Source: Eledone cirrhosa
Lineage: Eukaryota
Assembly (NCBI GenBank): GCA_964016885.1
Contig: OZ024747.1
Location: 80,476,001 to 80,540,000, forward strand
Direction of reading: 5' to 3'
DNA: 64,000 nt
Under the pieces are notes generated by a model. It saw only the letters and a list, made by a program, of their open reading frames with translations, was not told the origin of the DNA and did not search any database. Position 1 is the first letter of the stretch; every line of letters begins with the position of its first letter. Shown here one piece after another: positions 5,931 to 62,556 of the stretch. The position numbers were made by a program, and so were the translations under genes.

Positions 5931-6240
5931 GAGTTATATTGTTTGTTGATTATCATTCAACAAAGTTAATTTTATAACAATTTTGAAGCACTCTACAGGA
6001 TTTATCTGGAGTATTATTAATATTAACAATATTAATAAATGGAAAATATCTTTATAATACCGCCGTTAGCGAGCTTATACTATTAAGTCTTTGCTAAGGT
6101 ATATCAATATCTTAACACCAAATATTATATTTTATCTGATGAAAGCACACTAAAACTTTGTGTCCTTGAAATACGTATAATAAAATAAATATGCTATTAT
6201 AAAGATATTTTCCATTTATTAATATTGTTAATATTAATAT
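5931..6240. mobile_element. (TA)n-inserted pLTR-like element related to family A, with type I hammerhead
   Basis: Inverted arms about 6015-6059 / 6195-6240 and a tail; hammerhead at 6129-6186. Confidence 0.8.
6129..6186 (+). ncRNA. Type I hammerhead ribozyme
   Basis: ATTTTAT-CTGATGA-AAGCACAC..GTGTCCTT-GAAA-TACGTA-TA-ATAAAAT: stem I, core, stem II, palindromic stem III. Confidence 0.75.
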
Positions 6241-6279
6241 ATATATATATATATATAATTAATAACAATAATAATAATA

Positions 6280-6850
6280 ATAATATGAAGGAGAAAAAGT
6301 AACAATTCTCTGGGACTTTCCTGTACATACTGACAAGACCATAAAAGCAAATAGACCTGATATTGTAAAAGATCAACATAACAAGGTCTGTTTATTGATA
6401 GATATGAGCATCCCATGTGATCATCACAATATCGCGAAAATATAAAGATCTGCTTATTGAAATTGAGAAAAATGTGGCACCTCAAGGCTGTTACAATACC
6501 AGTCATTGTGGGACACTGGGAATGATCAAGAAAGGAACAGAACAATATTTGCGAATGATTTCTGGTTTACCCTCCCTGCACTAGGTGCAAAAAATTGTTT
6601 TGACGTATTGAGAAGAGCACTATCTCTGTAAGATTGATATCCCTCCTTGTATTTACATATTCATATGCACATGTGTATATATGTATACTGTTGTATATAT
6701 GTATACATGTGTATATATGTGTACTGTTATATAACTTCTTTAAAAATGTAAATGTAAATTTTTTAAAAATATTTTTAATATTTTTAATATTTCTAATTTT
6801 TTTAAATATTTCTTATATTTTTACCTTTTGACATTAATTTTTTAATATTT
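6280..6850 (+). mobile_element. R4/Dong-like non-LTR retrotransposon 3' fragment (RLE domain, degenerate)
   Basis: Translates WDFPVHTDKTIKANRPDIV..CLLIDMSIPCD..KY.DLLIEIEKMWHLKAVTIPVIVGTLG with frameshifts and stops. Confidence 0.8.
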
Positions 6851-6888
6851 TTAATATATATATATATATATATATATATATATATATA

Positions 6889-7301
6889 ATGTAGGAGGTG
6901 AGTTTTATTGTAGTACAATAAAGCAATGCAGATATCGGATAAGAAGCACTCTACAGTTTGTAGGACTGGAGTATACATAATATAAGATCAAAAGATGGTT
7001 AAAGGAGTTCCATGTATTTTATTATGCGCATTTCAAAAACAAACATCATCATGCAATAATATTTGTGTTTTCATCAGATAAAACAGGAGAATATGATATG
7101 AAGGCTAAAAAACACTTGTTGAGTTAAAAACATATGTTGATTTAAAAGTGCACTATCCACAAGTGTTTTTTAGCCTTCATATCATGTTCTCCTGTATTAT
7201 CTGATGAAAACACAAATATTATTGCATGATGATGTTTGTTTTTGAAATGCGCATAATAAAATACATGGAACTCCTTTAACCATCTTTTGATCTTATATTA
7301 T
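6889..7301. mobile_element. (TA)n-inserted inverted-arm element with a hammerhead in each arm
   Basis: 143-bp arms 6977-7119 and 7159-7301, tail 6889-6976; CTGATGA...GAAA-TGCGCA-TA on + (7195-7262), mirrored on - (about 7016-7083). Confidence 0.85.
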
Positions 7302-8239
7302 ATATATATATATATATATATATATATATATATATATATATATATATATATATATATATATATATATATATATATATATATATTTTAATATTTTTAATTC
7401 TGACATTATTTTCCTAATGACACCCCTCTAAATATATTTTTTTATTCAAACTTTCACAGATCTTTCGTCTAAAATAATTAATCTCACACAAAATAATATA
7501 TATATATATTTTCTGAGTAAATCACTCATCAAATTTAACGGTTAACAAACAAAATTGGAGTTATCTTTCCTTTCTCAATCGTGCAAACAAATATATTATG
7601 TACGATAATCTATATAACTTCGCTAAATTAACAATATTCTGAAAACATTTTCAATGTTGAACAAAATATTCGAATCTACAAATTGTTCTCCTCTTACAAC
7701 TTGAACCACCTATTTGTTTATGGAAAATACAAAATCAACTTCCTTCGTAACTCATATTAGAAATATAAGCAACTAATAATTGTAAATTATTTCTATTTCT
7801 ATAATACTAATACATGCACAATTATTAATCTATATAGATATTTATATACATATAACTTATTGTAATGTAATAAGATAAAAATACTTACAACCATAATTCT
7901 TCATATAATCTAATTGATTATATATACAATATTATAACTCATAATATAGGTAAATAAATTTAAATTTAAACTCTGGAATCATATTCCACCTTTTCCCTCA
8001 AATTTAATGTAAATACAAGCTCTTCTTCCCTTTTCTTGTTTCCTACGCATACATACACATATCCTAATTATTTAAATTCTCCATATCGTCTAAAATAACG
8101 TTTTCAGCCCTTTACCTCAACCTCATTTGCATACTCATCTTAATAATTTGAAATATCTGACTTTTCTTCACTATCCAAGGAAAACTTGAACCATTAAGGT
8201 ATATTTCTTGGTTATGTCAACATTTATAAAACACACTTC

Positions 8240-8342
8240 GTATTTTATCTGCTGAAAGCGTACCAAAGTTTTGGTACCCTTGAAATATATATAATAGAAT
8301 AAATATGGTTTTATAAATATAGTTTCCATTTATTTAATATCA
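8240..8342 (+). mobile_element. Family A pLTR-like end with degenerate hammerhead
   Basis: TATTTTAT-CTGCTGA-aagcgtaccaa..ttggtaccctt-GAAA-TATATA-TA, followed by ATATGGTTTTATAAATATAGTTTCCATTT as in 12173-12281. Confidence 0.7.
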
Positions 8343-59040: not shown

Positions 59041-59859
59041 ATATATATATATATATATATATGCATGCATTTGTATATGAATAAATATACGCAATTCATT
59101 ATCTGTATGTATACTTGTATATATTTAATGTATATTATATATATATACATACATGTATATATATATATATATATATATATATATATATATATATATATAT
59201 ATATATATATATATATAATGTGTGTGTGTGTGTTTGTATACATGTATATATGTAATGTATATATATATATATATATATATATATATATATATATATATAT
59301 ATATGGATAAATATATACATATATATAGATAAATATATACATATATATATATATATATATATATATATATATATATATATATATATATATAAATATATAT
59401 ATAATATACTAATAAACATTAAATATATACAAGTATACTTACATACAGATAATGAAATAGGTATATTTATTCTTATACAAATGGATGCATGGAGAAATAT
59501 ATACATATACATATATAAAATAAAACCAATTTCCTACATAAATGTGTATATATGCATACATTTATATTCGCACACATCATATATATTGTATTCTACATAT
59601 ATGGAAATATAAAGATTGAAGACCATTATGGCGGGCGTCATTTCCTCAACAGCAACTCATATTTTCAGAAATGATGGCCGTGCAAGGAGTAGAAATCGAT
59701 ATTCGAAACATATTACAGATGAGAATCATATATAACAAAATATACTTTTAGTTGTCTGTCATGTTTGGTCTACCTTTTTGTCCACTTGTATCCATATACA
59801 CATAGAAAGATCTCCTTGCCTCTATACATACATATATGCACGCTTACACTAACACTCAC

Positions 59860-61140
59860 CCACAAATACATAAACCCATATATATATATATATATATATA
59901 TATATATATATATATATATATATATATATATATATATATATATATATATATATATATATATTTATATATATATGTGTAAATAGATATACATATATGTAAA
60001 TATATATATATAAATATATACATATCTATATATATATATATATGTATATATACATATATATATGTGTGTAAATATATATATATGTAATGTAAATATATAT
60101 ATATATACATATGTATATATATATATATATGTATATATATATATACGTATATATGAATATATATATATATATATATATATATATTAATATATACGTATAT
60201 ATATATATATATTCATATATACGTATATATATACATATATATATATATATATATTCATATTTACGTATATATATACATATATATATATATTAATATATAT
60301 ATTTATATATATATATATATATATATATATATATATATATATATATATATATATATATATATATATATAGAATCAGACGTGCATAGTAATACAAATACAT
60401 ATACACGCATTCACCCATGTATATGCTTGAGACAGCATGTGTACATACACATTTAGTCTCTGTGCTGCTTATATATATATATATATATATATATATATAT
60501 ATATATATATATATATATATATATATATAAGCAGCGCAGAGACTAAATGTGTATGTACACATGCTGTCTCAAGCATATACATGGGTGAATGCGTGTATAT
60601 GTATTTGTATTACTATGCACGTCTGATTCTTTTTGTTATGGTTGGACAAAGAAACTTTCCTGTGGTTAATATGAAAATCTTGTATCAAACTTCAAAGATG
60701 GTATATAAACATATATACATACACACACACACACACACACACACACACACACACACACACATATATATATATATATATATATATATATGTAAATATATAT
60801 ATATATATATGTAAATATATATATATATATATATATATATATATATATATATATATATATATATATATATATATATATATATATAAATATATATATATAT
60901 ATATATATATATATATGTAAATATATATATATATATATATATATATGTAAATATATATATATATATATATATATATATAAATATATATATATATATATAT
61001 ATAAATATATATATATATATATATATATATATATATATATATATATATATATATATATATATATATATATATATATATATATATATATATATATATATAT
61101 ATATATATATATATATGTAAATATATATATATATATATAT
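59860..61140. repeat. Extended (TA)n-dominated microsatellite zone
   Basis: Long TA runs with interruptions; contains the inverted duplication at 60369-60630. Confidence 0.95.
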
Positions 61141-62117
61141 CATAAGCGCAGGACAAACTAAAAATAACAGTGTCTTCAAAGTCTCTTTGAGCTTCTCTAT
61201 ACCCAACTTAATATTGTGCAACTAAAATAATTGAATAAATAAACAATCAAACAAATAAACAAACAAACAAACAAATAAATAAATAAATAAATAAATAAAT
61301 AAATAAATAAACATATACATAAATAAATAATAGTTAAATGAATGAAATAGAAATAGAATGAAAAAAGAAAAGCAAGATCGATATTGCATGCATATTTTCT
61401 ACTGTACTCCTCTACGCATTCAGATCGATACTGTATTGTCACAAAATGATTGAGTAGGTTATATAATAAGTAAATGAATAAATAAATGTATAGAAATAGG
61501 AATATTTGAAAATAATATATAATATAAAATTATAAATATAATACACCCGATTTTGTTTCACTTTCTTTCCAGTACACCAATTAAGATTGCTTGATTTTAT
61601 ATATATATATATATATATATATATATATATATATATATATATATATATATATACAATATGTTGAAAAGGTAACACACCAGAGAGAGATATACAGTGCGTT
61701 ATCAATAAATCAGGGAAAAAAACCACCAGTGTATGGAATCTATAACCTATGAAAGGCAGACTATAGACACGATAATTAAAAATATAAATTAAAACGTAAA
61801 TAAATACCTCTATAACTATATAACACACGTACAAATCCAAAGACACTCATCTAAAGATATGTTTCACCAATAATTTGTTGAAAGAAATGGGTTAGCCTCG
61901 GTTCATCAGCGTGTGTAAGGCTATACATTTCAGACAACACTAAGAGAATTTTAAAATTGACTGTCCACCTACACGTGGGAGAGAGGAGTCACAGCGTGTT
62001 TAAGGGCAGTGAACCAGTGGCCTCTGAGGGACGAACTGCTAGAAAGGGCAGTCCAAAGCCACTCAGAGAAGTGTGCTCAACCAAACAGAGTTAGGAAAGA
62101 CTGTTATTAGGAGCGAA

Positions 62118-62191
62118 ATATCACGATAAATTAACGGAGGCATAGGCCCTCGCTAGCGAGGGCCTATGCCTCCGTTAATTTATCGTGATAT
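62118..62191. repeat. Perfect 74-bp palindrome abutting (TA)n
   Basis: ATATCACGATAAATTAACGGAGGCATAGGCCCTCGCT|AGCGAGGGCCTATGCCTCCGTTAATTTATCGTGATAT. Confidence 0.92.
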
Positions 62192-62246
62192 ATATATATA
62201 TATATATATATATATATATATATATATATATATATATATATATATA

Positions 62247-62556
62247 TAGTATAAAAAAACAAAAAATCAGTGATACATCTGGACTCAACTTATTGCGTGT
62301 TACAATTGTTTCGCCGGCAGGTAGCTCGAGACACGAACTACCCGTGGTGTCTGAAGGACCTGCAGCCGTAGAATCAGCCAGATCCATACAGGGACCATGT
62401 CTCAAGCCTCCTGCTGGCGAAACAATTGTAAAACGCAATAAATTGAGGCCAGATGCATCACTGATTTTCGTTTTTTATACTATCCACACTCTACTCTGTT
62501 GAATATTGAGTGCTAATTTTGGTATACCGCCTATGGAAGCACCATAGCTACCATTA
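62247..62556 (+). mobile_element. Family G inverted-arm element with hammerhead 3' half and tail
   Basis: Arms about 62247-62333 / 62397-62482 containing GAAA-CAATTG-TA; tail with ACTC..GAGTGCT. Confidence 0.8.

Follow-up and report, generated by a model that had tools for sequence, protein, structure and literature searches.

The question raised by this locus is what fixes the ends of a particular kind of short repeat. The stretch analyzed here, 64,000 nucleotides (nt) of Eledone cirrhosa DNA (GenBank assembly GCA_964016885.1, contig OZ024747.1, positions 80,476,001 to 80,540,000 of the forward strand; hereafter the window), contains fold-back insertions in which an inverted arm adjoins a direct copy ending in a one-sided tail. 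According to the original prediction, made from the sequence alone, otherwise unrelated families of such insertions share an ACTC...GAGTR hairpin just past the end of the short arm, interpreted as a conserved cis signal, that is, as a site of recognition by the reverse transcriptase (RT) or endonuclease (EN) or as a priming boundary. Our analysis describes the motif as a predicted bulged hairpin of the form RCUC-upper stem-loop-upper stem-UN-GAGY and finds it as a pair, termed hairpin 1 (H1) and hairpin 2 (H2), in most of the examined coding Penelope-like elements (PLEs) of the Hydra clade. Since the hairpin covaries, is present in coding Hydra PLEs and, in other animals as well, lies immediately 3' of insertion ends, the interpretation as a conserved cis signal at a priming boundary was borne out, and the hairpin pair is a real, clade-wide cis element.

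Fold-back insertions and their hairpins in the window

The window consists of A+T-rich, animal-type DNA with 116 (TA)n runs, between which the elements follow one order: (TA)n, inverted arm, direct arm copy, tail, (TA)n. For PLE insertions, the available part of Craig 2021 (PMC8557442) describes a 5'-truncated copy in inverted orientation that adjoins a direct copy, the tail being confined to one side; this arrangement of EN-bearing PLEs is found here, together with the (TA)n target site of the Hydra clade. Hammerhead cores occur in many window elements and are oriented so that the tail comes last. A type I hammerhead in element sense was found by scanning in family A and in the 5931, 6889 and 62187 elements, by reading the sequence in family D and in the 17413 and 50253 elements, and also in the 591-bp tandem unit described below; families B and G have its 3' half only, and a search of the window against Rfam at gathering score gave no match, hammerheads included. 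Pairs of hammerheads on opposite strands, 100-700 bp apart, have been described before (Cervera 2014). The motif-bearing tails measure 66-162 nt, outside the 30-40 bp of known PLE tails, and agree for most families with the hairpin spacing of 55-83 nt in coding Hydra loci. The short repeats of the window are likely cut-off copies of Hydra-clade PLEs. Helentron/DINE-type rolling-circle elements, which are defined by short fixed subterminal inverted repeats and a T-T target, were ruled out by the arm length of 30-205 nt (which varies within a family too), the (TA)n target and the hammerheads.

The hairpins outside family A and the 591-bp unit are as follows (window positions):
5486-5566, plus strand: H1, long-loop form, 7 nt past the arm end at 5478, element 5217-5615
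5715-5738, minus strand: H1, family B, element 5667-5877
5990-6012, minus strand: H1, element 5931-6236, 5 nt past the arm end at 6018
6948-6972, minus strand: H1, element 6889-7298, with hammerhead cores on both arms (7077 minus, 7201 plus)
17675-17708, plus strand: H1, element 17413-17764, no inverted arm, hammerhead core upstream
26844-26862, minus strand: H1, family D, element 26807-26989
38484-38502, minus strand: H1, family D
38718-38757, minus strand: weak candidate, GCTC/GAGT, followed after 71 nt by a (TA)n run; search for an inverted arm negative; E 3 with covariance model R1 (see below)
50378-50397, plus strand: H1 variant with a 1-nt bulge, element 50253-50437
54042-54060, plus strand: H1, family D, element 53915-54101
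57818-57841, plus strand: H1, family B, element 57737-57895
62075-62114, minus strand: GCTC/GAGC hairpin, 7 nt past the arm end at 62122, element 61654-62187; likely H2, because the hammerhead at 61909 lies downstream
62488-62511, plus strand: H1, family G, element 62249-62564
62631-62654, minus strand: H1, family B, element 62583-62760

All eight sites named in the original prediction were found, exactly in place or 1-2 nt off, and the stem, expected to start about 4-12 nt past the short-arm end, starts 5-12 nt past it in the seven listed families with inverted arms (the 17413 element has none). Overall, 10 of the 15 window families have a hairpin 5-12 nt past the arm end. The pattern ACTCN{8,30}GAGTR matched 41 times, whereas 100 shuffles averaged 12.97 matches and never exceeded 25; since both strands were counted, most sites enter this number twice. 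A position test corrected for post hoc choice of the motif considered any 4-mer and its complement at offsets 3-13 past the arm end in the 15 families: ACTC and its complement are common to seven families, compared with four for the best 4-mer of 5000 shuffles, and to 5 of 13 once A, 5931 and 6889 are pooled. Both halves are present in 10 families, nine of which have a 2-nt 3' bulge with U as its first base and an upper stem of 2-4 bp, and in these nine the upper stem and bulge pair in the 2-nt bulge register only; the exception, 50253, has a 1-nt bulge. The upper stems are family-specific, and all of them pair (CAA/TTG, CAG/CTG, TGC/GTA, TACT/AGTA, TGGG/CCCA, TGTA/TACA, TGA/TCA, CTAA/TTGG). 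Further carriers are the 5217 element, with its long loop, and the 62187 element, with GCTC/GAGC; the window version is mostly ACTC/GAGT, as opposed to GCTC/GAGC in the comparison loci, a compensatory swap of the basal pair. Other matches to the descriptor (27425, 27481, 28126, 28324, 52048, 52472-52530, 15543, 29509 and 57629) are not tied to element ends and were rejected, about nine being expected by chance.

The description of the carriers as otherwise unrelated held for the tails, in which no common sequence is detectable outside the motif, and failed for 5931, whose sequence upstream of the motif is related to that of A (z 7-10). Outside the motif, no consistent similarity links the tails of A, B, D, G, 6889 and 50253: past the motif, one A-D pair attains z 4.1, and the highest value among the remaining listed pairs from different families is z 2.8. 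The motif-bearing families are likely deep relatives within one clade.

Family A provides the link to a protein:
10137-12279: family A fold-back insertion, consisting of a short copy with a 90-nt tail (10302 down to 10137) and a long inverted copy (10303-12279)
10200-10219, minus strand: H1, family A
10303-10497, plus strand: C-terminal piece of a Hydra-clade GIY-YIG endonuclease, beginning exactly at the inversion point
12175-12255, plus strand: type I hammerhead motif of the long copy, approximate bounds
15072-15301, plus strand: family A element with arm, hammerhead (15115), first start site (15211), hairpin (15219-15238) and tail end (15301)
50135-50154, plus strand: H1, family A, element 50028-50217

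The endonuclease piece, which comprises the last 65 amino acids only, matches the Hydra profile at 10303-10494 (independent E-value 9.8e-14), is 49% identical to the Hydra protein P0186, does not match the Neptune-like P0050, and has the motifs CxxC and CxH, which surround the conserved E and N and were found in family A only; a search of the window with the Hydra profile found no remaining Hydra RT. The long inverted copy stops at the first start site. When reads were aligned to 15102-15301, thousands of family A reads exited into (TA)n at 15204-15214 (for example, 5199 and 6187 loose read ends in two runs, reads less than 85% alike being uncounted and depth in restriction-site-associated DNA sequencing not being equal to copy number), and contigs exit into (TA)n at 15299. 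Variants found in at least 5 reads per 100 lie in the spacer, the loop and the second bulge base, and none at stem positions.

The sequence past the tail end is clearly visible in one window element alone, the 591-bp unit, because it is tandem:
24601-26786: array of 3.4 units of 591 bp in minus-strand orientation, together with an inverted copy of 197 nt
26633-26693, plus strand: H1 of the unit, ACTC...TT-GAGC with a 45-nt loop; minus-strand copies start at 25183, 25774 and 26365
26184-26200, minus strand: H2 of the unit, directly past the tail end; more copies at 25002-25018 and 25593-25609

Each unit carries a hammerhead variant with a UUGAnAA core, the covariant described in PMC4209133, together with H1 and H2. 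The original prediction had found no clear GAGT partner for the ACTC of this unit; a GAGC partner exists, and with it a second hairpin past the tail end. One end of the array lies 8 nt before H1 and the other 11 nt before the shorter H2, which is located 165 nt beyond, an array end before each of two hairpins that suggested one hairpin per end.

Paired hairpins in coding Hydra elements

Whether coding PLEs carry the motif was asked of 78 Hydra comparison loci from a metagenome scan (the best 80 of 554 confirmed stretches), which were fetched with an alignment, A3, containing both the RWK and DKT motifs of the RT N-terminus. The hairpin motif occurs in elements of the Hydra clade; it was found in none of the Neptune-like elements. 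In the last 200 nt before the open reading frame (ORF) of the 38 loci with at least 150 nt of leader, which represent 31 families, two hairpins occur in 22 families, one in eight and none in one. Shuffled leaders gave a mean of 0.03 and a maximum of one two-hairpin family, and the reverse strand gave one; five of the second hairpins in this count had first been paired to a distant 5' half, their near partner being found later. The leaders have a common layout of hammerhead, U/A-rich tract, H1, a spacer of 55-83 nt, a second U/A-rich tract, H2 and ATG, with H1 and H2 separated by 55-83 nt in 31 of 38 leaders and H2 about 28-68 nt before the start codon. Past the 3' hammerhead, a hairpin follows 44-68 nt on in 28 of 43 distinct copies, while nine are too short, two reach TA first and four have none. 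One coding Hydra element (L014) itself has an inverted arm and a 63-nt tail, with the hairpin 7 nt past the arm end. Among six published Hydra consensi inspected by eye, the motif is clear in three (at the 3' end of Hydra-2_Amil and Hydra-2_Ajap, and twice at the 5' end of Hydra-1_Ajap). In 666 kb of the metagenome-assembled genome G001, 31 strict hairpins were counted, compared with 8-18 in shuffles, and 15 of them are followed by a TA run 50-95 nt from the hairpin start.

Other copies mapped onto these leaders gave 24 ends, of which 12 run into (TA)n (11 distinct, from six families). All 12 lie 0-5 nt before H1 (five) or H2 (seven), with microhomology counted as element, and the microhomology between U/A tract and (TA)n amounts to 2-6 nt. 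Among the 12 ends that do not run into (TA)n, three are at a hairpin. In the leaders of some coding Hydra copies (L094, minus 10605; L121; L124; L172) a (TA)n run stands directly 5' of H1 or H2; this looks as if U/A tracts in older copies were entered, or lengthened, by new ones, a process that could build tandem arrays. Many genomes filed as bacterial metagenome-assembled genomes (L002-L072, G001) carry animal-type DNA full of PLEs, and G001 (12 Mb) is mostly eukaryotic-looking in the contigs examined.

The pairing was evaluated in 50 hairpins that had been delimited from sequence alone; of the initial 58 candidates, eight were dropped, three as ambiguous and five lacking the 5' half. With a 2-nt bulge the first upper pair forms in 49 of 50 (36 C-G, 13 U-A), compared with 0-12 for bulges of 0, 1, 3 or 4 nt; for upper pairs 2 and 3 the counts are 36 and 31 of 50, respectively. 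The covariation expected from the original prediction is seen at the first upper pair, whose score of 0.196 compares with 0.075 +/- 0.011 in shuffles, none of 500 being as high. Because the shuffle control ignores kinship, the states were mapped on a tree of 30 proteins (median identity 50%), on which the first upper pair of H1 undergoes at least six joint switches with both sides changing, and that of H2 is almost fixed. A covariance model, R1, built from coding Hydra leaders only and from no window sequence, placed its top 14 window matches (E up to 0.4) all at element-end sites and in the predicted sense, including 62187 and three copies of H2 of the 591-bp unit; its E-values are rough, and it misses the long-loop and 1-nt-bulge forms (5217, 17413, 591 H1, 50253). 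In thermodynamic folding, A, 5931 and 5217 take the complete bulged form at minimum energy, and 17413 takes it as its centroid.

The assignment to Hydra was compared with another candidate partner, the coding PLE at 12300-15057 (minus strand), which is 5'-truncated and Neptune-like, with RT, zinc finger and GIY-YIG, a C/A-rich 3' untranslated region (UTR) of about 1.5 kb and a hammerhead near 12420, and which sits at the same TA run as two family A elements. As a partner this element was rejected, having near its 3' end an ACTC..GAGC without bulge or upper stem and no R1 match. In 71 loci fetched with a Neptune-like alignment, 12 distinct hammerheads follow the ORF and none of these is followed by the motif, although for four of them the sequence reaches a TA run or the end of the contig in less than 100 nt; the contigs of Neptune-like loci do contain short elements flanked by TA that carry it. 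Attribution of B, D, G, 6889, 50253, 5217, 17413, 591 and 62187, which have no ORF attached, to Hydra would follow from the hairpin and hammerhead type. Pfam detected neither PLE fragment of the window, and Rfam gave no match in six Hydra loci at E 0.1. Six 9-mer text searches of Naiad and Chlamys consensi gave four matches, none with the 5' half by eye, although line breaks can hide matches. A viral collection contained no PLE relatives, and its single pattern match (L001), with the bulge on the wrong side, was set aside as chance.

Priming boundaries and other explanations

The reading that we favor, and consider rather probable on comparative grounds, is that the paired hairpin in Hydra PLE leaders binds the RT-endonuclease and positions cDNA synthesis a few bases upstream; the tail, as it reads in these sequences, is the spacer between the two hairpins, H1 included. 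The Hydra protein, probably a dimer by analogy with the dimer predicted for a lizard PLE, would cut (TA)n on both strands, and each target 3' end would pair with a U/A tract and prime one cDNA, one before H1 and one before H2. Each hairpin would hold an RT such that the start falls a few bases upstream, in the U/A-rich tract. The two cDNAs would then join head to head, the inverted arm halting before H1 and the cDNA begun before H2 forming the direct arm, with H1 and the spacer as extra tail. On this account H2 would normally be uncopied, so that copies showing it would be restricted to tandem or full-length ones, as in the 591-bp unit and the coding leaders, and only one hairpin would be noticed in window elements because H2 is left out of ordinary insertions. 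Since an insertion that ends before H2 does not contain this hairpin, H2 would have to act on the template. The part of the original prediction concerning a priming boundary is supported; as the recognizing factor we infer RT rather than EN or a nuclease. More tentatively, and with somewhat less than even confidence, the sequences suggest a duplicated RNA "starter" hairpin across the clade, whose two copies load both active sites of an RT-endonuclease dimer, so that both ends of the cut (TA)n would be primed from one RNA at two defined internal sites.

Several observations weigh against the favored reading. Nine of the 12 matches not running into (TA)n end away from any hairpin, which probably reflects divergence between families. 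The spacing varies by family, D lying 9 nt beyond the microhomology and the others 2-5 nt. By eye, there is no clean motif copy in Hydra-1_Obim, Hydra-1_Amil or Hydra-1_Crog, the last having a variant, and 9 of 12 arm junctions in loci derived from G001 are without the motif. Upper pairs 2 and 3 are incomplete, often U-U in H2, and the four lower pairs are nearly invariant and so provide no evidence of covariation. Only the lower stem folds for D, G and 50253, and folding does not yield the bulged form for 6889, B, 62187 or either 591 site; the basal pair of the 591 sites is an A-C mismatch. The hairpin is thus thermodynamically weak in several families and would need protein to fold. The link between family A and Hydra crosses a non-coding stretch of about 1.7 kb, which is interrupted by two TA runs and may include later insertions. 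In the available part of Frangieh 2024 (PMC11167929), the lizard PLE initiates inside a stem-loop and without target homology. Finally, as had been noted for several families, the motif is absent from 5 of the 15 window families, H (44201/58494, ACTC only), 43518, 54127, 57906 and the doubtful 60370, which have the same architecture; the motif-less fold-back elements 43518-44185, 44201-44351, 54127-54399, 57906-58466 and 58494-59037, with tails of 41-65 nt, are probably other PLE clades with their own signal.

Among other explanations, the one that survives best, although we regard it as unlikely, is that the hairpins serve as signals for RNA processing: 3' ends would be made just before H1 and H2, either by a host nuclease or by termination of transcription, and would then enter ordinary target-primed reverse transcription. 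This would predict the same end positions, the invariant lower stem would fit any protein-binding site, and RNA-seq read ends do fall at RT start sites according to the accessible text of Frangieh 2024 (PMC11167929). The same text reports, however, that the lizard PLE begins internally in vitro whatever the RNA 3' end; moreover, a cut before H1 would part leader from ORF, and restriction of the motif to one PLE clade fits coevolution with the element's own protein.

A signal acting in DNA appears improbable. Here a DNA intermediate, single-stranded or extruded, would present the hairpin to the GIY-YIG endonuclease, which would recognize it and cut just upstream, resolving the tail; this is in line with the attribution of the tail to EN-mediated resolution in the consulted part of Craig 2021 (PMC8557442) and with the need of the Drosophila virilis tail for EN recognition of plasmid DNA, as cited in the corresponding part of PMC11167929. 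The strand is not fixed by wobbles, and the ACTC/GAGC variants would pair better antisense. However, an extra DNA intermediate carrying H2 would be required, and in the lizard element RT starts were mapped directly to the tail boundaries (PMC11167929, same part). Just as improbable is another leader function, such as translation control or packaging, with the ends set only by annealing of (TA)n to the preceding U/A-rich tracts. The position of H2 close upstream of the start codon and the tracts themselves, mostly A/T with 2-6 nt common with the target, would fit such a role. Yet A/T-rich tracts are numerous elsewhere in the leaders and UTRs, and the 11 distinct (TA)n ends are all confined to two narrow windows; the non-coding 591-bp unit, moreover, keeps both hairpins. 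That the motif is a neutral remnant of common ancestry, as the kinship of 5931 with A and the probable origin of all carriers in one clade might suggest, is highly implausible, since no resemblance is left in the flanks and loops whereas the stem covaries, the motif persists among proteins whose median identity is 50% and is duplicated at fixed positions, and the joint switches on the protein tree contradict it.

Neighboring repeats, known systems and implications

A few further features of the window were recorded. A G-like element at 54437-54580 has both ends at the same site and no tail, with the hairpin 3' half and tail-like sequence before the arm, which suggests either a nested insertion or a tandem unit of very short length. 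The fold-back element 57906-58466 carries five CCCTAA telomeric units (58138-58167) at its inversion joint; telomerase or telomeric RNA possibly took part in joining its two cDNAs. Fragments of a non-LTR retrotransposon with an RVT_1 match lie at 47249-48695 (minus) and about 6270-6600 (plus), and its C-terminus is a candidate restriction-like endonuclease of the R4/Dong type. An abundant repeat of about 190 bp (3087-3280, 4455-4650, 21157-21348, 31254-31454, 63237-63673 and others) we take to be SINE-like. Another repeat family, with related copies at 27150-28520 and 23974-24494, has an inverted pair (27881/28446) and internal (CAGA)n, and an array of 22-bp tandem repeats with open frames on the minus strand spans 33746-34631.

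The architecture, the clade and two-site initiation are already known. The Hydra clade in the accessible sections of Craig 2021 (PMC8557442) has in common with our elements the (TA)n target, type I hammerheads and, at the C-terminus, a GIY-YIG endonuclease with CxxC and CxH; in those sections, however, the tail is 30-40 bp and no cis motif past the hammerhead is described, in contrast to the longer tails of the window and the two hairpins of Hydra leaders. For PAc, a Poseidon element of Anolis, the accessible sections of Frangieh 2024 (PMC11167929) report that both target strands are cut and extended from two internal RT start sites, the tail being the sequence between them, with involvement of a stem-loop and a predicted dimer. 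PAc belongs to another clade and initiates inside an AC-rich stem-loop within the ORF, whereas the window and Hydra elements end just 5' of two separate bulged leader hairpins with 2-6 nt of microhomology.

The 591-bp unit, with tandem non-coding units and a type I hammerhead in each, has the makeup of a non-LTR retrozyme, as described for metazoans in the parts available of PMC7229834, PMC7761336 and bioRxiv 10.64898/2026.07.22.740005. The available part of PMC7761336 states that metazoan retrozyme repeats show no conserved motif pointing to a mobilizer; unlike those repeats, the 591-bp unit has the two hairpins of Hydra type, and its ends lie before them. We infer that non-coding units with hammerhead, H1 and H2, such as this one, are mobilized in trans by Hydra proteins.

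Structured RNAs that recruit an RT and set its priming site, and that are shared by non-autonomous elements, are familiar from R2, from pairs of long and short interspersed elements (LINE/SINE) and from the hepadnavirus epsilon bulge. Those structures occur once per RNA, whereas the Hydra hairpin is an internal pair, each copy marking one fold-back start. A comparison with the literature and Rfam, with Repbase entries and the supplements of the PAc paper and the retrozyme preprint outside it, yielded no account of a bulged hairpin that is duplicated and marks both ends.

The hairpin pair bears on how PLEs pick two internal start sites, and hence form inverted pseudo-LTRs (pseudo-long terminal repeats) with a one-sided tail; only one element has been reconstituted. 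A small covarying RNA element near both ends, found across a clade, makes mutations and hairpin shifts decisive tests. The hairpins also give a rule for annotating Hydra boundaries, and a shared cis motif of the kind reported missing between metazoan non-LTR retrozymes and their mobilizers is now supplied. If the "starter" reading is true, it would account in full for the inverted arm and the tail and provide a barcode linking non-coding retrozyme-like repeats to their mobilizer, and a portable 25-nt signal would set the start of target-primed synthesis on any RNA. Since PLE RTs are the sister group of telomerase, RNA-positioned internal priming bears on template definition by such enzymes.

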